A DNA stretch of 64,000 nt, from NCBI GenBank assembly GCA_963701965.1, contig OY969695.1:2240001-2304000 (forward strand). Reading direction: 5' to 3'. Made by a program: the position numbers and the translations under genes. Positions within the stretch are counted from its first letter, which is position 1. Each line of letters begins with the position of its first letter. The notes under the pieces are model-generated. The model worked only from the letters and a program-made list of their open reading frames with translations. It made no database searches and was not told the DNA's origin. This stretch comes from an uncultured Gemmatimonadales bacterium (GTDB lineage Bacteria > Gemmatimonadota > Gemmatimonadetes > Gemmatimonadales > Gemmatimonadaceae). This document shows, piece by piece, positions 3,249 through 42,092 of this stretch.

Positions 3249-3757
3249 GGGCGCAAGCCGTTACTCTCGGCGGTCCGCTCCTCGAGCCTCCGCCGCCGGC
3301 GCTCCCGCGCCGCGGCAAACCGCCGCTGCTCGTCGGCGGTCTCGGGAACGAGCGATGGCACCGGCACGGGCCGGCCGTTGCGATCGACCGCCACAAACGT
3401 GAGATAACACGAATTCGTGTGGCGCCGCCGGCCGGACAACAGATCCTCGGCCTCCACGCGCACGCCCACTTCCATAGAGGAACGGCCGACGTAATTCACG
3501 CTGGCCTTCATGATCACGAGATCGCCCACGTGAATGGGCTCGCGAAAGTCGACGCGGTCCACCGACGCGGTCACGCACGCCATCCGCGCATGCCGGAACG
3601 CGCAAATGCCCGCCGCCTTGTCCATCATCGACAGGATCACGCCGCCGAACACGTGACCGAGCACGTTGGCATCCTGGGGCATCATCAGCTCGGACGTCTC
3701 GTGCTGGGAGGCGCGGACGGGCTTGGGCTCGAGCAACTCTTCGATGTCAGGCTTCAT
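3245..3757 (-). CDS. acyl-CoA thioesterase (YciA-like hotdog fold)
   Basis: MPQDANVLGHVFGG..LSMMD, VTASVDRVDF, VGRSSMEV; ATG at 3757 overlaps the upstream TGA. Confidence 0.92.
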   Translation of the reverse strand: MKPDIEELLEPKPVRASQHETSELMMPQDANVLGHVFGGVILSMMDKAAGICAFRHARMACVTASVDRVDFREPIHVGDLVIMKASVNYVGRSSMEVGVRVEAEDLLSGRRRHTNSCYLTFVAVDRNGRPVPVPSLVPETADEQRRFAAARERRRRRLEERTAESNGLRP

Positions 3758-5010
3758 TTCCAAGGCGCGTGCCGGCGGGGTCGATGAACAGGCCGATGGC
3801 GATGCTGTGGCGGCCTCGCCGAGGCGGCCCACAACCGGGGGATGGGCCGGTGCCGCGGGTGCGCGTACCGCACACTGCGCGCATCGTCGGAATAGAGCGC
3901 GGACTCGTCGAACGCTCTGACCAACGCCCGGAGGGTCACGGTGTCGCGCGGAACGCCGTCGAGCCAGAACACGCGATGGGCCGGCGCCGGCAACCGCGCC
4001 ACCGGCCAATCGCCATGCGCGCTGTCCCGGAGCGCCAACCGGATGCTGTTGTTGGCGGTATCATACCGGGCAACCAGGGTCACCCGACCATGCGCCCACG
4101 ACTGCCCCGAGGGCAAAGTGCTCCGGACCTCGCGCCACCAGGGCGGCAACCCCGGGGTATCCGGCACGCCCACCGGGCCGAGCGCCAGCCACCGGCCGCG
4201 ACCGCCGGTCCCGTGCCCCGGCACCACAAACGCGACGGCGAGGGCCCCGCTGGGCGCCTCCAGCGTATAGCTCAAGGGATCAAACGTGAACGCCCCGCCC
4301 GCCAACGCCCGCGCCGCCCGGCGTACCGACTCGTCGTCGGCGTCGCTGTCCCCGATGGCACGAATCGAGTCGCGCACGGCGCGGAACCGCTGCCGCCCGG
4401 CGGCCAGTACCCGGTCGGCCGACGGACCGACGACGGTCCGCAGGGGCGCGATGGCCCGCGCCCGCAGGTCGACCACGCCGTGCCGGCTGGTCTGACCGGT
4501 GCCGGCCTCGCCGTTGGCCGAACCGTGATAAGCGAACGACACGAAAGGACCGTGCAGATCGAGAATGTCGACCTCGCCCGTCACCGTGCTGGCAGGATCC
4601 TCGGCGGCATCCTCATCCGGATCGAGAGGCGCGTCATCGGGATGCCGCGCGGCGTACCCGGCGGCGGCTCTCCCAACGGTGCTGTCCTCGAACACGGCCA
4701 CGGAATCGCCATTCAAGAGATCCCGGGCGTAGATGCGCTGGCCGACGAAGACGGCATTGTAGAACGACCGGTCGTCGTCGGCGACGTAGACCTCGTAGAA
4801 ACGGTCCCCGTACTTCGTGAGCACGAGCGGCGCGCCGCGCACGTGCACGCCGTCGTGCCCCGTCGTCACCCAGAACGTCGAGTCACCCGCCGCGATCAGA
4901 AATTCGGCCGGCGGCGGCGCCGTCGCATGCCCGCGTGACGCACGCGCGGCAGGCCGCGCGCCGCACGCGGCGGTCGCCATCACCGTGAACAACAGCGGAA
5001 CGTGACGCAT
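3754..5010 (-). CDS. hypothetical lipoprotein
   Basis: N-terminal hydrophobic stretch with lipobox TAAC; coupled to the downstream gene. Confidence 0.7.
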   Translation of the reverse strand: MRHVPLLFTVMATAACGARPAARASRGHATAPPPAEFLIAAGDSTFWVTTGHDGVHVRGAPLVLTKYGDRFYEVYVADDDRSFYNAVFVGQRIYARDLLNGDSVAVFEDSTVGRAAAGYAARHPDDAPLDPDEDAAEDPASTVTGEVDILDLHGPFVSFAYHGSANGEAGTGQTSRHGVVDLRARAIAPLRTVVGPSADRVLAAGRQRFRAVRDSIRAIGDSDADDESVRRAARALAGGAFTFDPLSYTLEAPSGALAVAFVVPGHGTGGRGRWLALGPVGVPDTPGLPPWWREVRSTLPSGQSWAHGRVTLVARYDTANNSIRLALRDSAHGDWPVARLPAPAHRVFWLDGVPRDTVTLRALVRAFDESALYSDDARSVRYAHPRHRPIPRLWAASARPPQHRHRPVHRPRRHAPWK

Positions 5011-9735: not shown

Positions 9736-9764
9736 GCGGTAAGCTAAGAGATCGCACGGGAGCG

Positions 9765-10233
9765 GCGGCTTGGCCGCCGCGACAGGCAACCGACAGTCGT
9801 TGTCTCGCTGTGGCGAAGGCCACAGGAGCGCGGCTTGGCCGCCGCGACAGGCAACCGACAGTCGTTGTTCTAGCTGTGGCGAAGGCCACAGGAGCGCGGC
9901 TTGGCCGCCGCGACAGGCAACCGACAGTCGTTGTCTAGCTGTGGCGAAGGCCACAGGAGCGCGGCTTGGCCGCCGCGACAGGCAACCGACAGTCGTTGTT
10001 CTAGCTGTGGCGAAGGCCACAGGAGCGCGGCTTGGCCGCCGCGACAGGCAACCGACAGTCGTTGTTCTAGCTGTGGCGAAGGCCACAGGAGCGCGGCTTG
10101 GCCGCCGCGACAGGCAACCGACAGTCGTTGTTCTAGCTGTGGCGAAGGCCACAGGAGCGCGGCTTGGCCGCCGCGACAGGCAACCGACAGTCGTTGTTCT
10201 AGCTGCGGCGAAGGCCACAGCTAGAACAACGAC
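9765..10233. repeat. tandem array of 7 x 65-66 bp hairpin-rich units
   Basis: Unit GCGGCTTGGCCGCCGCGACAGGCAACCGACAGTCGTTGTTCTAGCTGTGGCGAAGGCCACAGGAGC starts at 9765, 9830, 9896, 9961, 10027, 10093 and 10159. Confidence 0.97.
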
Positions 10234-21233: not shown

Positions 21234-23452
21234 TCACCACGCGCGCCGCGTTAGCGCGCGTGTGGCTCGGGGACGCGGTTGCTGTCCCTATCCAGCTCGG
21301 CGCGATCACGCTCCATCCCCACCAAGCCTCCGCCGTCGCGCGCCTGGAGCGGGCCCTGGCCGAATTCGGCGGCGCGCTGCTCGCCGACGAGACAGGACTG
21401 GGCAAGACGTACGTGGCCGCCGCCCTCATCGCCAGGGCCCGGCGCCCGCTGGTCATCGCGCCCGCCGGGCTCCGCGCGATGTGGCACCAGGCTTTGACGG
21501 CCAGCGGCACGCACGCCACCGTCCACTCGGTCGAGGCCTTGAGTCGCGGCCGGCTGCCGGAAGCTGGGTGCCAGGATCCCGGCGCAGCCGGGATCAGTCC
21601 AACCGACCCCGGATCTCGCGACGCGGAGCGTGGGCGAGATCTCGTCGTGGTCGACGAGGCCCATCACTTCCGGAACCCGCACACCCGCCGCTACGCAGCC
21701 CTCTCGGCGCTCGCCATCGGCGCCCGCGTCCTCCTGCTGTCAGCGACGCCCGTCCACAACCGGCGACGCGATCTCATCGCGCTCCTGGCGCTCTTTCTGG
21801 GCGCCCAGGCGGCCGACGAGACGACGCGGGGACGGGTCATCGTGCGCCGCCTGCACACCGCGGAGACGCGGCCGCGCGTGGATCCCACGCGGTGGTTGAC
21901 CGTTCCCCACGACGACGCAACGCTGGACGCGATATTGGCCCTGCCACCGCCGGTGCCGCCGAGCGACGGCGGCAGCGCCGGCGCGCTCGTGGCTCTCGGT
22001 CTCATCCGCCAGTGGGCATCGAGCAGCGCCGCCCTGCGCGCCGCATTGCGCCGGCGCCTGGAGCGCGCCGGCGCACTAGCCTCCGCGCTCGAATGCGGGC
22101 GGCATCCCACCGATCGCGATATCCGCGGTTGGTGTCTGGGCGACGGCGCCGTCCAGCTCGCCTTTCCCGAGCTGCTCATTCCCCAGCCGACCATGGAGGC
22201 GGGCGCGTTGCTCTCCGCCGTGCGCGCGCACGAAGCGGCCGTCGCCCAGTTGCTGCGCGACGTGCGCGACCGCCCTGATCCCGACATCGCGCGCGGCGCG
22301 CGGTTGCGCGCGATCATTGCGCGACACCCCGGCCAGAAGATCGTGGCGTTCTCCGTCTTCGAGGACACGGTGCGGGCCCTGGCGCGTCGTCTGGCGCGCG
22401 ACGCCCGCGTGTGCGCCCTGGGCAGCCGCGGCGGTGTCGTCGCCAATGGAACGCTGACGCGCGCCGCCGCGATCGCGCGTTTCGCACCACTCGGCACCGG
22501 CGCCGCCGACGCGATTGATGTATTGCTCGCGACCGACCTGCTGAGCGAGGGCGTCAACCTGCAGGATGCCTCCGTCATCGTGCACCTCGATCTCCCGTGG
22601 ACACCCGCGCGCATCGAACAGCGCATCGGTCGCGCGGCACGGCTCGGGTCGCCGCATGCGTGCGTCACCGTGTATGCGATGGCGCCGCCCGTCGCGGTCG
22701 AACGATGTCTCGGCGTGCAGCGCCGCCTCGAGGAAAAGCTTCGCCACGCCGCGCGCGGCCTCGGAACGAGCGGCCTGATCGTGCCGCGCGCACTGGACGT
22801 GACGTTCGACATGCGCGCAACGTGCGAACGGTGGCTTGCCGCCGGCGGTCAGCGAGAGTGCCAGGCAGGCTATCCGTGGGCCGCCATTCGCGCGCCGCGC
22901 ACCGGATATCTCGCCGCCGTCCGCGCCGGCGGTGTCCCGTCGCTCGTGGTCGATCTCGGCGACGGCCCAACAGACGATACGGATGCGGTGGCCCGCGCCG
23001 TATCGCTGGCCGATGGGCCGGTCCTAACGGCGCCGGCGCGCCCCGAGGGCACCGAGCGGGCGGCACGAGCCTGGGGCGCGCGGCGGTGCGCCGCCCGCGA
23101 CGCCGGCACGCTCGCCTCCGACGACCCGCGGCGCGCCGCAAGGCGGATCGCGCGGCGGATCGCGCGGGCTATTCGGCGCGCCCCCGCGCACCGGCGTCCG
23201 ATCGTCGCCGCGTTGGCCGCCCGCGCGCGCCGCGCGCTTGCGCCGGCCGGTGCCGGCACCGAGCGCGCCCTCGCCGCGCTCGTGGACGCCGCGCTCGCCG
23301 ACGAAGCCTGGCTCACCGCCGTCGCGGCACTCGCCCGCGCGCCACATCCCACCACCGCCACCGGTGGTGCGCAAGACGATGTGACCGTGCTCGCGCTGCT
23401 GCTGTTTCGCGCCGCGCCGTCGGAGTCGCGGGAGTGTCGGCCAGGGCCTTGA
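21230..23452 (+). CDS. SNF2-like superfamily 2 helicase (start uncertain)
   Basis: LHPHQ, LLADETGLGKT, VVVDEAHH, LLSATP, ATDLLSEGVNLQ, QRIGRAAR. Confidence 0.9.
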   Translation: MITTRAALARVWLGDAVAVPIQLGAITLHPHQASAVARLERALAEFGGALLADETGLGKTYVAAALIARARRPLVIAPAGLRAMWHQALTASGTHATVHSVEALSRGRLPEAGCQDPGAAGISPTDPGSRDAERGRDLVVVDEAHHFRNPHTRRYAALSALAIGARVLLLSATPVHNRRRDLIALLALFLGAQAADETTRGRVIVRRLHTAETRPRVDPTRWLTVPHDDATLDAILALPPPVPPSDGGSAGALVALGLIRQWASSSAALRAALRRRLERAGALASALECGRHPTDRDIRGWCLGDGAVQLAFPELLIPQPTMEAGALLSAVRAHEAAVAQLLRDVRDRPDPDIARGARLRAIIARHPGQKIVAFSVFEDTVRALARRLARDARVCALGSRGGVVANGTLTRAAAIARFAPLGTGAADAIDVLLATDLLSEGVNLQDASVIVHLDLPWTPARIEQRIGRAARLGSPHACVTVYAMAPPVAVERCLGVQRRLEEKLRHAARGLGTSGLIVPRALDVTFDMRATCERWLAAGGQRECQAGYPWAAIRAPRTGYLAAVRAGGVPSLVVDLGDGPTDDTDAVARAVSLADGPVLTAPARPEGTERAARAWGARRCAARDAGTLASDDPRRAARRIARRIARAIRRAPAHRRPIVAALAARARRALAPAGAGTERALAALVDAALADEAWLTAVAALARAPHPTTATGGAQDDVTVLALLLFRAAPSESRECRPGP

Positions 23453-29248: not shown

Positions 29249-29935
29249 ATGGGTTTCTCGTACGCGGGTGCACTTGCCCAGCCGGTCGTCCGCACCGGCG
29301 AAGAGCGGGCGACGCTCGTCCGTCGCACGTACGCGCTGGTGTTCACGGGTGTGTTGGCCACGATCGGCGGCGCACTGTTCTCGTCGACCCAGCCGGCGGT
29401 GCTGGAGGCTGTCGTGCAGCATCCCTTCATTGGGATCCTGCTCATGTTCGCCCCCTTGATCGCTGCCCAACGGGCGTACAACAAGTTCCCGGCCAACATC
29501 GGCCTGGTGTACCTGTTCACGTTCATCATGGGCGTCTATCTGGCGCCGACGCTGCTGTACTACGCCAAGGTGCAGCCCGGCGTCTTGGGTCAGGCCGGAT
29601 TGCTGACCGCCACGACGTTCGGGGCGCTGACGGGCTACGCCTTTGTGAGCCGCCGCGATTTCAGCGCGTGGGGCTCGTTCTTTTTCGTCGGCCTCATCGT
29701 CCTCGTGGTCACGTCGCTCATCAACGTGTTCCTGCAGAGCGCGGTGGCGCAGCTCTGGATCGCCGCGGCGACGGTGCTGGTGTTCTCGGGCTTGTTGATC
29801 TTCGACACGTGGCGGATCCGGAACACCTTCGGGCCTGACCAATACGTGTTGGCCGCGATCTCGATCTATCTCGATCTCCTGAACCTGTTCATGGCGATCT
29901 TGACGCTCCTGTCGGGCGGGCGCCGGCGCGGCTAG
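29249..29935 (+). CDS. Bax inhibitor-1/YccA family membrane protein
   Basis: RRTY, RRDFS, LIFDT, AISIYLDLLNLF. Confidence 0.93.
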   Translation: MGFSYAGALAQPVVRTGEERATLVRRTYALVFTGVLATIGGALFSSTQPAVLEAVVQHPFIGILLMFAPLIAAQRAYNKFPANIGLVYLFTFIMGVYLAPTLLYYAKVQPGVLGQAGLLTATTFGALTGYAFVSRRDFSAWGSFFFVGLIVLVVTSLINVFLQSAVAQLWIAAATVLVFSGLLIFDTWRIRNTFGPDQYVLAAISIYLDLLNLFMAILTLLSGGRRRG

Positions 29936-31368
29936 CCGAGTCCACTGGCGACTCCCACACCGCCCCGTCGTGGAACCGCGCCACCAAGCTGAGCCGCAGT
30001 CGCTCGGCAATGGAATCAGGCCGGGCGACGTCGGGGTTTGGTGTGTCAAAGGCCACCATGACCCCATGCATCTGCCGCAGCCGGTCCCCGAACCGGTGCA
30101 GCATGAGTCCGTCCAGGGACTCCGGCAGGTCATGCGAGCCGCGGCCCACCAGGAAATACAACGGCGCCGACCAGTTGGTGTAGAGCGTCCGCCCGACCCC
30201 CGCGGTCCGGACCCACGCCACGGTCGGTGACGCACGCCAATCGACGTTGGCGAAGTCGTTCCCTTCGGTGAGCCCGAACTGCACGTCGCTCACAGTCTCC
30301 ACCAACGACACCACCGCCCAGGCCGTGCCCGCGGTCGCCGCGACCCAGCGCGCGGGCCACCGTTCCGCCCACCACACCGCGCCGGCGACGACGATTGCCA
30401 CTTCGCCGAGCAGAATGACCGGCGACAGAATACGGCTGTCGAACGGAATGCTCGGATCGGCCACGATCCGCGACACCAGCGTCATGGCGGCGAGCCCCAG
30501 GCCGATCAGCATCGCGCCTTGTACGACCCGACTGCTGCGCAGGACGCGGAGTATCATCGCGGCGAGAATGCCGGCCACGCCGGTCGCGGCGAGCCAGCGC
30601 AGCGATGTCTCGCTCAACCCAGGCGCGAGCCAGTCGGCGAACGTGCTGGCGCCCTGGTGCAGCGTCCGGCTCAAGCCCCCATAGTGCGCGAACTTGCGGA
30701 CGCTTGTCGATCGCACGCGGGACACCCACACACCAAGGGCAAACGCGGCGGGCAGCGCCACGGTCGCGGCATCGCGCCATCGTTGGCGCCACGGCACGCG
30801 TTGCAGCAACATCCAGAGCGCTAGGGCGCCCACCATCCCGGCACCGACATAGCGCACCAACACCGCGGCCGCCGCGCAGACCCCGACCAGCGCCCGCCAT
30901 CGCCACGCGGGCCGCTCGTCGGCCAGGATGAGCGCGCCCAGCGTCGCCAGCACCAGCGCGAGAAACAACGGCTCGCTCAAGACCGACAGAATGCACGTCG
31001 GCAATGGCGGGCGTGAGGGCGACGACGGCTACGGCGAGGACGCCCGCCCACGAGCCGACCACCGTGCCCACCAACAGATAGAGCACAGCGGCCGACAGAA
31101 ACGCCGAAAGCGCGAGGACGAGCCGCGCCGACTGCACGGGTGCGAAGCCCACGGCAATGGGCACGGCGATGGCCGTCGAAAATCCCGGCGGGAAATGCGC
31201 CAGCGCTTCCGTCGTGTCGGCGACCGTCCATTCGCTCGCCGGCACACGGTACGTCCCGGACCGCACGAGCGAGACCGCGGCACCGACGTACGAGACCGCA
31301 TCCGGGTCGAGTCCGGGCGCCGGCGGTCGGGTCGCCAACACGACGAGCGTAAAGGCGAGCGCTCCCAT
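29889..31368 (-). CDS. multi-TM glycosyltransferase-like protein (GT-C/ArnT-like), +1 frameshift at about 30990
   Basis: DPDAVSY, HFPPGFS in one frame; SEPLF and further TM helices in the next; removing one A rejoins them as DVHLSVLSEPLF. Confidence 0.65.
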
Positions 31369-33825: not shown

Positions 33826-34536
33826 GTGTCGGGATCGTCGTCGCTACTCGCGCTCAAACAACGGCTTGCCGAAGTCATTCGCGCGCCGGTTCCCGGGTCG
33901 GCCGGCTTGGCGACCGGACTCGACGCGCTCGATCGGGCATTGGCCGGCGGCGGCCTGCCGCGCGGACGGCTGACCGAAATCACGGGACCGCGGGGCAGTG
34001 GCAAGACGACGCTGGTCCGGCGCATCGTCGCCGTGAACGCGGCGCGGGCCACGGGCGACATCGCGGTCGCCTACATCGATGCCGCCCGCACGCTCGTGCC
34101 GCGCGAATGGGCGCATCTGGCCTTGTGGGTGATCCGTCCCGCCGATCCCGGCCGCGGCGCCTGGAGCGCGGACGTGTTGCTGCGGAGCGGCGCCTTTGGG
34201 CTCGTCGTGCTCGACGGCGCGCCGCCGCTCAGCCGGGCGGTGACGGCGCGCCTGACGCAGTTGGCCCGCGACAGCGATGCGGTCCTGCTGGCGCTGGGCG
34301 ACGACGACAGCGGACGGCGGACCAGTGTGCTGGGCGCGACGGTCCGGCTCCGCGTCAGCGGATGGCGGGTCGTGATCGAAAAGGGCGGAAGTCACCACGC
34401 AATGGAGGTGCCGCGTGACATCGGATTGGCGCGTCGCTTGTCTACGCATCCCGAGGTTCCCGATCGGCGCGGTGTGGCGCGCGCCAGGGGCCGCGGACGA
34501 TCTCCGCGATGCGGCGAGCCCCCAGCATTGGGATGA
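33826..34536 (+). CDS. imuA: ImuA-like RecA-fold protein
   Basis: TGLDALDRALAGGGLPRGRLTEITGPRGSGKTT, AYID, LLRSGAFGLVVLD; lies upstream of imuB. Confidence 0.8.
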   Translation: MSGSSSLLALKQRLAEVIRAPVPGSAGLATGLDALDRALAGGGLPRGRLTEITGPRGSGKTTLVRRIVAVNAARATGDIAVAYIDAARTLVPREWAHLALWVIRPADPGRGAWSADVLLRSGAFGLVVLDGAPPLSRAVTARLTQLARDSDAVLLALGDDDSGRRTSVLGATVRLRVSGWRVVIEKGGSHHAMEVPRDIGLARRLSTHPEVPDRRGVARARGRGRSPRCGEPPALG

Positions 34537-36188
34537 CCGTCTGCTGGCCCTCGCGCACGACAAGACCCTCAAGACCATTTCGTATGCCGCCGGCCGGCGG
34601 CGGGTGCGCGCCGGCATGACGGTGACCGAGGCCAAGGCCCATTGCGCCGATATCACCATCCTTCCGTGGGATGATGCCATCATCGATCGGGCGGTCACCG
34701 ATGTGACCGCGGCGCTGCTGGCGGCCAGCCCCCAGGTGACGCCGGCCGCCGGCGCGCCCGGCATGTGGTGGGCCGGCGCGAGTGGGCTCGATCGCGTCGG
34801 CGGCGAACCGGAGCTCGTGCGCACGTTGGTCCGCATCGCCAGTCAATGGCATCCCCACGCCCGCGTCGCGGTCGCCGACTCGTGCGTGGCGGCGCGGGCT
34901 GCGACGTGGGCTCTCGGCGACGCTTCGCGTCACGAGAGCCCAGATCGGTTGGACCGATCCCCGCTCCGCCGGGATCCCGGCGACGCTTCGCGTCGCGAGA
35001 GCCCAGATCGGTTGGACCGATCCCCGCTCCGCCGGGATCCCGGCGACGCTTCGCGTCGCGAGAGCCCAGATCGGTTGGGCCGATCCCCGCTCCGCCGGGA
35101 TCCCGGCGACGCTTCGCGTCGCGAGAGCCCAGATCGGTTGGGCCGATCCCCGCTCCGCCGGGATCCCGAGTGCGACCCGATCATCCCCTCCGGGTCGTGA
35201 CGCCGCGTATCTGGCATCGGCTCCCCTCACCCTCGCACCCATGGACGCCGAAGTGCGCGACGCGCTCTTCGCGCTGGGGATCCGGACACTCGGCGCGTTG
35301 GCGGCGTTTACCCCGGCCGACGTCGAGCGGCGCTGGGGCGACGCCGGACTCGCGGCCTGGCGGCTGGCGCGCGGCGACGACCGGCGGCGGCCGGTGCTGG
35401 CGCGCGTCGAGGCGGCGCGGGCCGTCTCGGCCGAGCTGTCCGGAGCAGTGTCGACCCTCGAGCCGGTCCTCTTTCTCGTGCGCGCGGCCCTCGACCGGCT
35501 CGTGGCGCAGCTCCAGGCCGACGGCCGCGCGGCGGCCACGATCGCCATCACCCTCCTGTTGGACGACCGGCGCACCGTCACGCGGGAGATCAGCATGGCG
35601 CGGCCGTTGGCCCGCGCGGCCCCGCTGCTCGAGCGATGCCGGACGCTGTTGGAGCGGTTCACGCTCTCGTCGCCCGTAGCCGGCGTGACCGTCGCGATCA
35701 CCGCGACCGCGCCGGCGTCCGGCGAGCAAGGCAATCTCTTCGACACCGCGTGGCGCGACGGCGGAGCGCTGGACGCCGCGCTCGACCGGTTGCGCACCGA
35801 GCTGGGCGCCGACGCCGTCGTGCGGCCGGTCGCCCGCGACCGGCACTGTCCGGAGCGGAGCGGCGCGTGGGTCGCGGACACGGACGCGGCCGCCGCCCTC
35901 GCGCCGGCGGCATCGACTGCCCCCGTCGCCACGGCGCCGCGCCGGTTTCTCGCCGCGCCCGAGTCCATCGATGTCGAATGCGCCGGCGACCGGCCGATCG
36001 CGTTTCGCTGGCGCGCCCGGCGCATTCCGATCGAGCACGCCATCGGCCCCGAGCGCCTCGCCGGCGACTGGTGGGATGACAGCTATTGCCGCGACTACTG
36101 GCGGTGCGAAAGCCCGGATACCGCGTTCGTCATTTATCGCGACTATCTGCGCGGCGCCCAGTGGTACGTGCAGGGCTGGCACGACTGA
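34415..36188 (+). CDS. imuB: ImuB, inactive Y-family polymerase-like protein; in-frame 4x21-aa repeat insert and +1 frameshift at about 35185
   Basis: VRAGMTVTEAKAHC; LGIRTLGALA; QGNLF clamp motif; GPERLAGDWW...RDYW...WYVQGWHD C-terminus. Confidence 0.85.
34915..35168. repeat. tandem array of 4 x 63 bp hairpin-rich units within imuB
   Basis: Unit CGGCGACGCTTCGCGTCGCGAGAGCCCAGATCGGTTGG(A/G)CCGATCCCCGCTCCGCCGGGATCC starts at 34915, 34978, 35041 and 35104. Confidence 0.97.
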
Positions 36189-36198
36189 CCGGCGACGG

Positions 36199-38637
36199 CT
36201 ACTCCGGACGCATCGCGATCACCGGATCGATGGCCGCCGCGCTCCGCGCCGGCAGCCATGACGCGAGCGCCGCGACGCCCAGGAGCGCGATGCAGACCAA
36301 CTCGTATGTGGGCGGGTCGTCCGGGCGAATGCCGTAGAGCAGGGCGGCGAGTACCCGTCCCCCGAGGTAGGCGACGAGCAAGCCGAGCCCGAGGCCGATG
36401 GCGGCGAGTCGGAGCCCTTGCCCGACGACGAGACCCACAACCTGTCCCTCGCGCGCCCCCAACGCCATGCGGATCCCCAGCTCCCGCCGTCGCTCGCGGA
36501 CCGAGTAGGCGAGCACGCCATAGATGCCGATCACGGCGAGCAAGAGCGCCACCGTCGCGAACGCCCCCACCACTGCCGCGTAGAGGCGCGGCCGGGCGAC
36601 CGTCTCCCGCAATGCCTGCGTCATCGTCTGGGCGGAGAAGATCGGCACTTTCGGATCCACGGCCAACACGGCCCGGCGGGCCGCGGGGATCAGCGTGCCC
36701 GGATCCGCGGACGACCGCACGACGAACGTGAGATAGCCGATCGACTGTTGATCGAACGCCGCGTAGAGTCGTGGCCCCGATGGCGCCTTGAGGTCGGCAT
36801 CCTTGGTGTCGCCCACGACGCCGACGATTTCCCCGCCCATGGTGACTGTGTCCCGGTGCCCGGTCGAGTCGCCGGTCCAACCCACGCGGAGGCTCTTCCC
36901 GATCGGCGACTCGCCGGGGAACACTTCCTTCGCGAACGTCTCGTTGACTACCATGACCTGGTGGCCGCCCGGCCGATCGTCATCCGTGAACGTACGCCCC
37001 GCGCGGAGCGGAATGCCCAGGGCCGAGAAGTACCGGGGTGTCACGATCTGGATGTACGCCAGCTGCTTGTGGTCGACAGGATCGGGCGGGCGGCCGTCGA
37101 CGTCGACGGTGCTCATCGCATCGGCGAGTCCGAACGGGACGCCAAATCCCGCGCCGGCCGCGATGGTACCGGGAAGCGCGCCGAGACCCTGGTTGACCGC
37201 GTGCACGAAGCCCCGTTGACTGGCCCACGTGGTGTATTGGGCACGGGGGAGCGTGACGTCGAACCGCACGACGTTCTCCGGTCGGAACCCCGGGTCGACC
37301 GCGATCACTCGCAAGAAGCTGCGCGTGAGGAGTCCCGCGCTGATCAGGAGGAGGACGGCCAGCGCTGTCTCACCGGCGACGAGCGCACTCCGCAGGCGGC
37401 CGGCGCGCCGGTGTGCGCTCGCGCCGCGCGAATCGGACTTGAGCGACGCGAGGACGTCGGAGCTCGCGGCCTGCAGCGCGGGCGCCAGGCCGAAGAGCAG
37501 GCCCGTGAGCACGGCGATCGTCGCGGTGAACATCAGCACCCGCCCGCTCAGGGTCACCTCATCCAGCCGCGGCAGGTTGCCCGGGTGCGTGGCGATAAGC
37601 ACCTGGATACCGGCATACGCCAGCGCCACGCCAGCCGCCGCGCCGGCGCACGACAGGAGCAGGCTCTCGGTGAGCAGTTGCCGCGCGATCCGTCCTCGGC
37701 CGGCGCCGAGCGCGACGCGCACCCCGAGCTCCGCGGCCCGGCCCGAGGCCCGCACCAAGAGCAGGTTGGCGATATTCGCGCAGGCGATGAGCAGCACGCA
37801 TCCCACTGCGCCGAGGAGCACGTAGAGCGCGCCACGGGCGTCACCCACGATGCGATCCCGCAACGGCTGGAGCGTGTAGCGAAAGTCGGCGTCCTCCTCC
37901 AGGTGCTGCTGGCGCAGGCGTTCCGTCACCGTCACGAACTCTTTGCGGCCGCCCTCCAGCGTGACGTTCGGCGCCAGCCGGCCGATGACCTGCACGTAGT
38001 GAGAGGCGCGCATAGCGGGCGCGAGGACCGCGGGATTGAACACCTCGGGGACCCAGATATCCGGGTCCCGCGGAAATGTGAAGCTCCGCGGCGCGACGCC
38101 GATGATCGTGTAGGGTGCGCCATCGAGGTCGATCGTGCGACCGACAGCATGCGCGTCCGCGCCGAACCGCGAGCGCCACAGCGCGTCGCTCAGCACCGCG
38201 ACCTTGGGCGCGCCGACCGCGTCCTCTCCCGGCGCGAACACGCGGCCGTGGGCGGCGGACACGCCGAGGATCGTGAACCAGTTCGCGGTGACGGTGGCCG
38301 CGCTCAAGCGCACGGGATCCGTCTCGCCTGTCATGTTGTTGGTGCCCATCTCGTACACCGCCATCGCGTCCAGCCGGTGCACTTGATCGCGCCAGTCCGC
38401 GAAGTCCGGCGGTGACACGAAGGTCGAATGGGTGGGGCCATCCGCCGACGTGACCGCGACCAGGCGGTCAGGGGCGCCAAAGGCCAGCGGGTTGAGCAGC
38501 ACGCTGTCGACGACGCTGAAGATCAGTGTGTTGGCGCCGATCGCGACGGCGAGCGTCACGACGATGGCGAGAGCAAACCACGGGGCCATCCGGAGACTCC
38601 GGAAGGCGGTGCGCAGGTCGGCGAGCAGGGTGTCCAT
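36199..38637 (-). CDS. duplicated ABC permease (ADOP/MacB-FtsX x2 family)
   Basis: DLRTAFRSL, IGANTLIFSVV, LLIACANIANLLL, ELGVRVALGAGR, GIYGVLAYSV..RRRELGIRMALGA, PARSAA.IDP. Confidence 0.93.
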   Translation of the reverse strand: MDTLLADLRTAFRSLRMAPWFALAIVVTLAVAIGANTLIFSVVDSVLLNPLAFGAPDRLVAVTSADGPTHSTFVSPPDFADWRDQVHRLDAMAVYEMGTNNMTGETDPVRLSAATVTANWFTILGVSAAHGRVFAPGEDAVGAPKVAVLSDALWRSRFGADAHAVGRTIDLDGAPYTIIGVAPRSFTFPRDPDIWVPEVFNPAVLAPAMRASHYVQVIGRLAPNVTLEGGRKEFVTVTERLRQQHLEEDADFRYTLQPLRDRIVGDARGALYVLLGAVGCVLLIACANIANLLLVRASGRAAELGVRVALGAGRGRIARQLLTESLLLSCAGAAAGVALAYAGIQVLIATHPGNLPRLDEVTLSGRVLMFTATIAVLTGLLFGLAPALQAASSDVLASLKSDSRGASAHRRAGRLRSALVAGETALAVLLLISAGLLTRSFLRVIAVDPGFRPENVVRFDVTLPRAQYTTWASQRGFVHAVNQGLGALPGTIAAGAGFGVPFGLADAMSTVDVDGRPPDPVDHKQLAYIQIVTPRYFSALGIPLRAGRTFTDDDRPGGHQVMVVNETFAKEVFPGESPIGKSLRVGWTGDSTGHRDTVTMGGEIVGVVGDTKDADLKAPSGPRLYAAFDQQSIGYLTFVVRSSADPGTLIPAARRAVLAVDPKVPIFSAQTMTQALRETVARPRLYAAVVGAFATVALLLAVIGIYGVLAYSVRERRRELGIRMALGAREGQVVGLVVGQGLRLAAIGLGLGLLVAYLGGRVLAALLYGIRPDDPPTYELVCIALLGVAALASWLPARSAAAIDPVIAMRPE

Positions 38638-38782: not shown

Positions 38783-41700
38783 ATGTCGTACGTCGAGTTG
38801 CACTGCCACTCGGCCTTTTCGCTGCTCGATGGCGCATCGATTCCCGAAGCGTTGGTCGATCGCGCGGCCGCTCTCGGGATGCCGGCGCTGGCGCTCACCG
38901 ACCACGACGAGCTCGGAGGATTCGTCCGCTTTGCCCAGGCGGCGCGGACCGCCGGGATCGACGCCATCATCGGCAGCGAGATCACGGTCGCCGGATCGCA
39001 TCTGGTGCTGTTGGCCGAGTCCCGCCAGGGCTACGGCAACCTGTCGACGCTCATCACCCTCGGCCGGATGGGCGCTCAGCGCGGCGAGCCGTCGGTCGCG
39101 CTCGACCAAGTCGCGGCCCACGCCGCGGGACTCCTGGCGCTGACGGGTTGTCCCCGCGGGTGGGTGCCGTCGCGACTGGCGGCAGGCGACCCGCGCGGGG
39201 CCCGCGCGGCCGCGGGGACCTTGGTCGACATCTTCGGCCGCGACCACATCGCGATCGAGTGCTGGGATCACGGCCTGCCCGAGGAGCGCGAGCTCGTGCG
39301 CGGGCTCCTCGGTATCGCCAAGGCCGCCGGCGTGCCGTGGGTCGTCACCAACGACGTGCACTACGCCGAGCCCGGCGGCCGCATCGTGCAGGAATGTGTT
39401 GTCCTGCCTCCGACACCAGTCCACGCTCGACGCGATGGGGACGCGGCTCCGGCCGAACAGTGAGTGGTACCTCAAGAGCGACGCCGAGATGCGAAGCCGG
39501 TGGGAGGACCCCGCCGGGGTGCGGGCCACCGAGGCCATCGCCGAGCGTTGCCGGTTCCGGCTGGACGATCTCCACGCCACGCTCCCGCGGTTCGCGGTGC
39601 CGGACGACAAGACACCGGATGCCTACCTTGCCGAACTGGTCGAGCAAGGCGCGGTCGCGCGGTGGGGGGGGCGACGAACGGATAAGCAGCGGCGGCAGCT
39701 CGATCACGAGCTGGCCATGATCCGGCAGCTCGGCTACGCCGGGTTCTTTCTCATCGTCTGGGACATCATGCGGTTTGCCCGCGAAGAGGGCATCCTCGCC
39801 CAGGGCCGTGGCTCGGCGGCCAACTCGGCCGTCTGCTACTGCCTCGGCATCACGGCCGTCGATCCTATTCGCATGGGATTGCTCTTCGAGCGGTTTTTGA
39901 GCGAAGGACGGCGCGAGCCGCCGGACATCGATCTCGATTTCGCGCACCGCGAGCGCGAGCGGGTGATCCAGTACGTCTATGCCACGTACACGCGGGAGCA
40001 CGCGGCAATGGTCTGTGAGCAGATTACCTATCGCGGCCGCTCCGCGGTCCGCGATGCGGCGCGCGTGTTCGGGTTCTCGGTGGAGCAAGCCGGCGTCCTC
40101 GCCGATCTCAGCGATCGGTTTTCGGCGCGCGAGACCGCGGCGACGCTGCGCGGCGCTGACGCGCCGGCAGCGCGCCCCCGGCCGCTCAAGCGATCACCGC
40201 ACGAGATGCGGGCGGTCGCATCCAAGCCCAATGACGATCACGATCGCCATCACGATCATGAATACCACCACGAACCCGAGCACCGTCACGACCACGAAGA
40301 GCGGCGCAATCCGACGACGGCGATTCGGCCGCACGACCATGTGCTGACGCGCGCCGGGCTCGATCCGGCGGACCGGCGCGTCGCGCTCCTGGCCGACGTC
40401 GTCGACGGGCTGCATCAGCTGCCCCGGCATCGCTCGATCCACGTCGGCGGTTTCGTCCTGACCGACGAACCCTTGTCGACCGTCGTGCCGATCGAGCCGG
40501 CATCGATGCCGGACCGCACGGTGATCCAATGGGAACGCGACGATCTCGAAGGCGCGGGCCTGATCAAGATCGACCTGCTCGGCCTCGGGATGCTGACACT
40601 GCTGCAGGATTGCATCCTGTATATCGCCAGGATGCGGGGCACGACGATCGACCTGGCGCATCTCGACATGTTCGACGCGGACGTCTACGCCAGCATGAGC
40701 CGCGCCGACACCATTGGCGTCTTTCAGATCGAGAGCCGGGCGCAGATGAGCACCCTGCCGCGGCTCCAGCCGCGTTGCTTCTACGATCTCGTGGTCGAGG
40801 TGGCGATCATTCGCCCGGGTCCGATCCAGGGCGACATGGTGCACCCGTACTTGCGCCGGCGCGCGGGCCGTGAAACGATCGAGTACCCCCATCCCAAGCT
40901 CCGCCCGATCCTCGAGCGCACGCTCGGCGTGCCGCTCTTTCAGGAGCAGGGGATGCAGGTGGCCATCGCCTGCGCCGGGTTCACGCCCGGCGAGGCGGAC
41001 AACCTGCGCCGGGCGATGGGACACAAGCGTTCGCGCGAGAAGATGGCGGCGATCCAGGACGCGCTCGTGGGCGGCATGATCCGGAACGGCATCGCGCCGG
41101 ACCTGGCCGCGCGCATTTACAAACAGATCAACGGGTTCGCGGATTACGGATTCCCCGAGTCGCACGCCGCGAGCTTCGCGTTGCTCGTGTATGCGTCGGC
41201 GTATCTGCGCTTCTATTACGCGCCGGAGTTTCTGGCGGCCATTCTCAACGCGCAGCCCATGGGGTTTTACGCCCCGGGGACACTGGTCGAAGACGCCCGC
41301 CGTCACGGCGTCGAGGTGCGACCCGTCGATCTCACCTGCTCCGATTGGGACTGCACGCTCGAGTCTACGGCCTCCGCGCCCGCGACCCGTCTCGGCTTAC
41401 GCTGTGTCCGTGGCCTCGGCACCGCGGCGAAGAACGCGTTGGCCCGGGCGCGAAGCGCCGGGCCATTTCGATCGGTGGAGGATTTTGTCGATCGCGTGCG
41501 GCTTGATCGACGAGCGGTGCGACAGTTGGCGGAGGCTGGCGCGTTCGACACAATGGTCGGCGGGACGCGCCGCGACGCGCTGTGGCGCGTGCTGGAAGCA
41601 CAGCGCGGGACCGGCGGGCCGCTCGTCGTGCACCCGCCCACCCCCACCCCGGCGCACGTGCCGGCAATGGCGCCGTACGAACTGACCGCGGCCGACTATC

Positions 41701-42092
41701 GCACGACCGGTCTCTCCCTCAACGGCCACCCCATGATCCACCTGCGCGCGACGATCCGGCCCAATGGGATTCGCACGGCCCTGGACATCGTGACGCACGG
41801 GCGGGACGGCGAACGGATCGCGGCGGCGGGGCTCGTCATCTGCCGCCAGCGGCCGGGCACGGCGAAGGGATTCGTCTTTCTGACGCTCGAAGACGAAACG
41901 GGCACCCTCAACGTGGTCGTCACGCCGAAACGCTTCGAGCGCCACGCGCTCGTGATCTCGCGGACGCCACTGCTTTTGGTGCGGGGCACACTGCAGGTGG
42001 AAGAGGGGGTCGTGAACCTGCGGGCCGACACGTTCAAGGTCCTCGACGCCCCGGTGGGCGCCGAGCACGCCCAGCGCCACGACTTTCACTAG
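38783..42092 (+). CDS. dnaE2: error-prone DNA polymerase III alpha (DnaE2/ImuC), +1 frameshift at about 39393
   Basis: YVELHCHSAFSLLDGAS PHP domain, GRGSAANS, PPDIDLDF, KIDLLGLGML, FQIESRAQM, YGFPESHAASF, C-terminal RHDFH. Confidence 0.93.

Follow-up and report, generated by a model that had tools for sequence, protein, structure and literature searches.

The window, by which we mean the whole 64,000-nucleotide stretch analysed here, lies in a single 5.12-Mb contig of an uncultured Gemmatimonadales bacterium (genome G000). It carries an imu cassette in the order radical SAM gene–imuA–imuB–(ABC permease gene)–imuC, with a tandem array of short hairpin-forming units inside imuB, a second array at a DUF72 gene and a single related copy in an SNF2-like helicase gene (Table 1).

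Table 1. Positions in the window of the arrays, of the parts of the first imuB array unit and of the imu genes
Feature	Position	Strand	Remarks
DUF72 array, seven 65–66-bp units of the same element family as the imuB array	9755–10220	+	
Terminal hairpin A of the DUF72 array	10190–10233	+	10190–10202 is an inverted copy of the gene end at 10221–10233 (Met-Ser-Leu-Phe-stop)
Single in-frame GATC-subfamily copy inside the SNF2-like helicase gene	21575–21641	+	Missing in four relatives
imuA (RecA-like)	33826–34536	+	
imuB, N-terminal frame (PF00817)	34415–35200	+	Holds the array; ends early as assembled
Host flank, forming on the plus strand the outer 5' arm of hairpin A	34907–34916	+	Conserved Trp codon plus 7 nt; Trp kept in relatives; assigned by pairing
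Four-unit tandem array of the 63-bp element	34917–35168	− (folding strand: CAACCGA, GNA loops)	TRF; net 252 bp relative to orthologues
Exact array units	34917–34979, 34980–35042, 35043–35105, 35106–35168		
Inner hairpin A of unit 1	34917–34933	−	GAA mini-loop on the minus strand
Inverted flank copy inside unit 1	34933–34942	+	Reverse complement of 34907–34916 (10 bp); recurs in units 2–4
Family core of unit 1	34944–34951	−	CAACCGAT here; consensus CAACCGAC
Hairpin B of unit 1	34955–34976	−	Minus-strand GGA loop; one mismatch in the stem
imuB, C-terminal frame (PF11799)	35181–36188	+	
C run in imuB	35185–35188	+	Contains one base more than the Ile-Pro-Pro-Gly reading of the orthologues; the shift does not depend on the array
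imuC/dnaE2	38783–42092	+	Split by one extra base near 39393

The array in imuB and its host gene

Tandem Repeats Finder (TRF) gave a 63-bp period with 4.1 copies and 97% matches at 34908–35168, and this resolves into the four exact units that a first-pass annotation of the sequence had described. The units follow the pattern A'ABB (one base differs in unit 1 and one change is common to units 3 and 4). In three same-genus genomes (G001, G003 and G004) the site reads Trp, six residues, Val-Ile-Pro-Pro-Gly, and the distance from Trp to Ile-Ile is 18 nt compared with 270 nt here, so that the net insert of 252 bp (4 × 63) is a whole number of codons. The annotation had called the array in-frame in imuB, which holds for the insert itself and fails for the gene as assembled: its first frame closes at 35200, 261 aa in, and the PF11799 half is in another frame, because of the one extra C in a run that lies 17–20 nt past the end of the array. 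The extra base in imuC is missing from one low-depth contig of a near-identical organism, and coding statistics predict the imuC shift at the same place as this contig difference. A similar frameshift signal was found in at least 62 of the 4046 genes of the assembly, and assembly error is therefore a likelier cause of the imuB and imuC shifts than true mutation; two shifts within one cassette may also reflect decay of the imu operon. Two further genes seem to be split by frameshifts (window 29889–31368 and 3754–4992), which fits an unpolished assembly. The ABC permease gene (MacB/FtsX) between imuB and imuC is on the minus strand (window 36199–38637), and in one low-depth contig 36188 is linked to 38783 by five other bases.

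It should be noted that the sequencing runs listed comprise one DNA run with a small share and no RNA run, that no read set spans the imuB array and that no contig spans either the imuB or the DUF72 array. This, and the many single-base shifts, might be taken to mean that the array is an artefact of assembling a long-read genome. We regard such an origin as extremely improbable, as the differences between units are ordered, the net length is exactly four units, and both tandem copies and flank-matched arms are seen again in metagenome contigs and in G003 and G004, whose genomes are fragmented.

All three palindromes previously noted in the unit are present. The second and third overlap in one GATC and compete, and the second is peculiar to the imuB locus. 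The array region folds far more strongly than shuffled sequences (DNA z −7.9). The mini-hairpin d(GCGAAGC) is found on the minus strand, as had been pointed out, and the GNA mini-hairpins are strand-specific; GCGNAGC is known as an extra-stable DNA mini-hairpin (PMC13037366). The inverted copy of host codons immediately 5' of the array is likewise borne out, at 10 bp in length, and, as detailed below, pairing with the flank holds across the family.

ImuB belongs to the Y family but is catalytically dead (PMC6511836), and the gene described here has the IMS and IMS_C domains and a place in an imuA–imuB–dnaE2 cassette. A PDB sequence search returned weak Pol IV matches only; a model of an intact relative (pLDDT 73.8) has the Y-family (Pol IV) fold and matches Pol IV structures. 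On this model the array site is predicted to fall in a surface turn between helix 178–185 and strand 191–193, and the linker at this place, measurable in 14 of 17 relatives, ranges from 6 to 32 residues. The element in imuB is probably a passenger in a length-tolerant loop, and its position in this gene is likely to be incidental.

A dispersed family of two-hairpin elements

The units of the imuB array are copies of a small two-hairpin DNA element that is dispersed over the genome and the genus; BLAST as well as TRF located the unit at many further sites. A scored scan of the genome, with score and threshold fixed after the family had been seen, found 92 cores at 59 loci compared with 2 cores in a reversed-genome control, and superseded earlier loose hairpin finders that gave high backgrounds. 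Two or more cores are present at 14 of the 59 loci. Three loci (850335, 1390964 and 2480169) were removed as likely false, leaving 56 for the analyses of flanks, replichores and loops. In the CAAC orientation hairpin B (about 9 bp) is followed by four bases and the core, and these by a variable segment and hairpin A. Of the 56 loci, 39 have a C[GNA]G loop on hairpin B and 28 have one on hairpin A, on the same strand in both, whereas enclosed mismatches are evenly divided between G.T and A.C (5 versus 5), so the strand of the element is assigned from the loops only. The stems are conserved: in 15 aligned copies seven of the nine hairpin B pairs change on both sides, a result reached in none of 500 shuffles, although relatedness of the sequences inflates this control. 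The first-pass annotation had considered the imuB and DUF72 arrays unrelated in sequence and alike in build logic, with units generated de novo at each locus. The likeness of build is real, both being hairpin–CAACCGAC core–hairpin; the arrays also have the CAACCGA core and the two-hairpin plan in common, and with 59 scored loci their units belong to a dispersed family rather than to one locus each. Cores of the CAACCGAC type occur in 17 of the 28 long tandem arrays listed for the genome by TRF, the DUF72 array included.

Elements with the variant cores CAACTGAG, CAACCGGA, CAACAGAA and CAACAGAC were found at G000:C1:2695844, 3308035, 3310407 and 1081992, so that the scored loci do not make up the whole family. 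A search of the genome for half-elements returned chiefly chance matches among those listed. A perfect 4 × 45-bp hairpin array lacking the family core lies at G000:C1:4085199–4085378.

The family is present in all five same-genus genomes and in none of 55 others, and with a tighter pattern it was found in 0 of 148 genomes of the taxonomic family that lie outside the genus; 38 matches compare with at most 5, a background level, across 400 genomes of the phylum. Element number is high in G000 and G003 and low in G001, G002 and G005. Where element-bearing records have a name, it is Gemmatimonadaceae. A GTDB-wide pattern scan proved too loose, and among the matches listed (119 loci) only three look real, two of which (L070 and L158) are Gemmatimonadaceae. 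The third (L128) is a 1.9-kb contig labelled Trinickia; its three-hairpin element stands in a context nearly identical to that of a G003 locus, and the contig is probably mis-binned. A scan of viral sequences gave no match. The three-hairpin form, with an internal arm of its own, accounts for 37 of 66 rows in relatives (duplicates included) and for one copy (340765) among the scored loci of G000; flank-matched arms are found in forms without the third hairpin.

According to gene calls made in this analysis, the host stop codon lies in hairpin A at 19 of the 56 loci and at hairpin B at 6, while 14 elements are inside genes and 17 elsewhere, the imuB locus being counted among the last because of its frameshift. 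Empty sites were identified in relatives for imuB, DUF72, rpsA–pccB, pccB–accC, GDH, pyruvate kinase and the SNF2-like helicase. At the pyruvate kinase site the insert measures exactly 63 bp and has a CGAGATC repeat, and at the rpsA–pccB junction one relative has an element of a different subtype. The direct repeats at element ends are short and variable (CTAG-, GATC- or TGA-type, CGAGATC; 2 to 8 nt) and may represent microhomology rather than a fixed target duplication. The imuB unit is a member of a GATC subfamily with 21 loci, of which 13 lie within 2.25–2.75 Mb; this interval was chosen after the fact, and the clustering suggests local spread. No replichore bias was detected among the 56 loci (26 versus 30). 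A gene for a VirD4/TraG-like coupling protein (G000:C1:2401503–2403119) carries a two-unit array, with no relaxase recognized beside the gene. A second rpmG (at 119645) and a deviant tetranucleotide profile were observed in G000:C1:1–320000, possibly a chimeric join or a foreign segment; no scored element occurs before 339300, and both RT genes and two of the three IS110-type matches fall in this segment.

The host genes are mutually unrelated (GroEL, GDH, PccB, pyruvate kinase, hydrolases), and the proposed link to clamp-binding motifs is not sustained. The accompanying idea that copy number tunes the mutasome, that is, that the array is a selected variable-number module adjusting ImuB and the mutation rate, seems to us very unlikely. 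It can draw on the preserved frame of the insert and on the repair or helicase function of 4 of the 16 intragenic hosts (ImuB, Lhr, Ada-AlkA and SNF2-like), a proportion noticed post hoc, and Di Nocera et al. speculated likewise about intragenic REPs in repair genes (PMC3733652). Against this, the loop varies in length among relatives and is a surface turn on the model, the assembly shows frameshifts in imuB as well as imuC, and most copies of the family lie at unrelated genes.

Relation to known repeats and to candidate mobilizing enzymes

The family is REP/BIME-like, with an unusual target-copied arm. In common with REP and BIME sequences and their TnpA-REP (RAYT) system (PMC3333891, PMC8266576, PMC3184786, PMC3733652) it has short strand-specific hairpins, an unpaired conserved tag and two hairpins per unit, dispersal followed by local tandem amplification, TAG stop codons supplied by element ends, restriction to a lineage, and in-frame intragenic copies of about 20 residues, some of them in repair genes. 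Placement is also REP-like, with dispersed palindromes, local arrays and a stop codon overlapped or abutted at 25 of the 56 loci. Unlike REPs, the element has no constant GTAG or CGTC foot (CTAG, GTAG or TTAG is found in a minority of the 56 loci), and its tag, CAACCGAC, is internal and stands between two hairpins of which neither is an inverted copy of the other. Nor does the unit combine a REP with a second, inverted one: hairpins A and B differ and have their GNA loops on one strand. Further differences are that stems vary by locus, that one arm mirrors the target, that PF01797 is absent from six genomes and that replichore bias is lacking. The annotation had allowed that the units might match a dispersed, known REP or MITE family regardless of flank; they are dispersed, but the family is not catalogued and its arms depend on the flank. 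A search of Rfam yielded two chance matches only (E about 3).

The classical MITE pattern applies in part: direct target repeats (2 to 8 nt) and filled and empty sites are present, whereas the two ends of the element match as inverted repeats only over TAG/CTA. In integron attC sites the RYYYAAC and GTTRRRY boxes pair at the foot of one long hairpin; here each unit has one GTTRRRY-like core, between two hairpins and without a partner box. PF00589 (integrase) gave 14 matches in G000, and the places where the elements occur are core genes rather than cassette arrays. MIRU-VNTR loci are characterized by a variable tandem copy number, a trait that the element shares. The element resembles mycobacterial MIRUs (PMC12548453) and Rickettsia palindromic elements (PMC3733652, PMC3184786) in being a short unit at gene junctions and in its in-frame insertion into proteins, but MIRUs have a coupled ORF at start codons (PMC12548453); a flank-copied arm is not described for either in the available parts of these articles, the comparison being one of descriptions. 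The oriented, single-stranded hairpin repeats NTS and SRM of the Ssn (GIY-YIG) system are also similar, hairpin B being close to the NTS stem in size and composition (PMC11893778). They differ in that none of the 56 loci fits the published SRM search pattern and no small Ssn-like gene was found in G000; NTS copies are, in addition, described as rarely intragenic (PMC11893778). A literature search covering mainly articles outside subscription journals, in their main text, found no account of the family or of target-copied arms; repeat families are also tabulated in the supplements of PMC3733652, which may be relevant to novelty.

The suggestion to look for a REP-associated tyrosine transposase or a reverse transcriptase led to no gene tied to the element. 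PF01797 (TnpA-REP, HUH Y1) had no match in six genomes of the genus, which are 67–95% complete, with a positive control in 6 of 14; a TnpA-REP gene can be lost (PMC3333891). With regard to a possible derivation from IS200/IS605 or IS91, neither PF01797 nor the strand bias of IS200/IS605 was detected (26:30), and PF04986 matched in none of five genomes with the control profile silent. PF13814 was uninformative, its control also being silent. PF00078 (RT) gave two matches, in G000 only, PF02371 (IS110) matched in three of six genomes, PF04480 (DUF559) gave one weak match in a long frame and PF05635 matched in G003 only. No element adjoins the RT, IS110, integrase, DUF559 or PF13366 matches that were inspected. 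PF01541 (GIY-YIG) detected two long proteins in G000, UvrC and a Cho-like protein, in a search that could miss a divergent small Ssn-like gene. Two near-identical small GIY-YIG genes (L282 and L283, about 120 aa) lie in a repeated segment of G001 with no element beside them. Among the gene neighbours listed for G000 loci, for 13 loci of relatives and for 9 metagenome loci, none was tied to the element, nor was any of the short genes near the GATC-subfamily cluster.

The arm that mirrors its flank

Pairing between the variable segment and the host flank is locus-specific. For the 32 non-GATC loci the longest matches to the own flank sum to 248, compared with a maximum of 175 in permutations (0 of 20,000), and the own flank is best or tied at 20 of these 32 loci and at 6 of 24 GATC loci. 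At 15 loci with one common inner hairpin (one row, L037, being read from the opposite strand) the outer segments are all different. Of their 71 outer positions 47 pair with the flank of the same locus, where permutation gave a mean of 22.9 and a maximum of 39. The DUF72 protein ends EQMSLF in four of four complete relatives, and PccB and GDH end KKHGNIPL and KLRGIYA in every complete relative shown, the element being absent in each case. The mirrored flank at these genes is therefore conserved host coding sequence and the direction is from host to element; to judge from the sequences, the flank is of host origin at DUF72, PccB and GDH and at the imuB Trp codon. At imuB itself the evidence for copying is thinner: seven of the ten paired bases are already subfamily consensus, while the three non-consensus positions all pair with the flank and one of these bases is found in none of 19 other subfamily loci. 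Each of the four imuB units carries the copy, as do all units of the DUF72 array, so that the rewrite preceded amplification, the order that had been proposed. Overall the arm has likely been copied from the landing site.

Three sets of side observations concern other configurations. A family copy without inner hairpin A (G000:C1:4780716) has an inverted copy directly abutting the gene end FLWNLF. In G004 a three-hairpin copy (L036:1440–1600) is enclosed by a 16-nt inverted repeat of the outer flank, the same copying on a larger scale. At L043 and L271 the mirrored flank includes an apparent start codon, not a stop codon.

The variable segment might instead be a guide that chooses a complementary target by pairing, as in IS200/IS605 or bridge-type systems, with no rewriting of the element. 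Copies of the GATC subfamily with the same segment do land at GATC-containing sites, and the imuB flank already resembled the consensus arm, but up to 13–15 nt of the arm match unique conserved gene ends at DUF72, PccB and GDH, and no second scored locus has those segments. We consider a guide improbable for the family; guide pairing may account for where GATC-subfamily copies land, but it does not explain the unique arms.

Another alternative is that insertion takes the ordinary course of a REP/MITE-like unit and that the arm is matched later by quasi-palindrome template-switch mutation, coding selection purging changes in the opposite direction. The process is known (PMC7202029, PMC13100816): the nascent strand folds back, copies itself and perfects an inverted repeat, and in Escherichia coli it is an established process by which palindromes are made more perfect and longer (PMC7202029). 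It is known as a rare source of point mutations and is not known as a routine step in the spread of a mobile element. Flank matches are often imperfect and variable in length, and at one orthologous site in two relatives (L045/L235) the arms follow each species' own Phe codon, both of which agree with later mutation. We nevertheless hold this course of events to be rather doubtful, since all 15 copies with the same inner hairpin differ in the arm, where a slow neutral process should leave many unaltered, and since the rewritten arm in every unit of both arrays places the rewrite before amplification.

On balance we favour the explanation that the array is a fourfold expansion of a dispersed element, likely non-autonomous and mobile in single-stranded form, whose arm was likely rebuilt from the target flank by fold-back synthesis. 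In such a scheme a nicking enzyme would open a site with 3–8 nt of microhomology to the element junction, and the host 3' end would prime copying of the element. Past inner hairpin A the new strand would fold back, copy 4–13 nt of its own flank and rejoin the element at the core, and extra units might then arise by slippage or by rolling-circle-like copying through the end repeats. Points against fold-back rebuilding are that no enzyme was found, that there is no replichore bias, that the even G.T and A.C mismatches lend no strand support, that the own flank is best or tied at only 6 of 24 GATC loci and at 20 of 32 others, and that most of the paired bases at imuB are already subfamily consensus. 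A bolder form of the proposal, which we put forward as possible and tentatively, is an undescribed copy-in transposition in which each insertion rewrites the arm by fold-back, so that the hairpin is rebuilt on any gene end and the element diversifies with each jump.

The family bears on how REP-like repeats arise, diversify and spread, as its members, which also add 21-residue segments to unrelated proteins, record each insertion in their own sequence, in the form of a conserved core, co-changing stems and a target-mirroring arm. The 56 curated loci of a single contiguous genome, together with the empty sites, make the order of insertion, rewriting and amplification testable with close strains or with an enzyme. 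If copy-in rewriting is true, the element would diversify at every jump.
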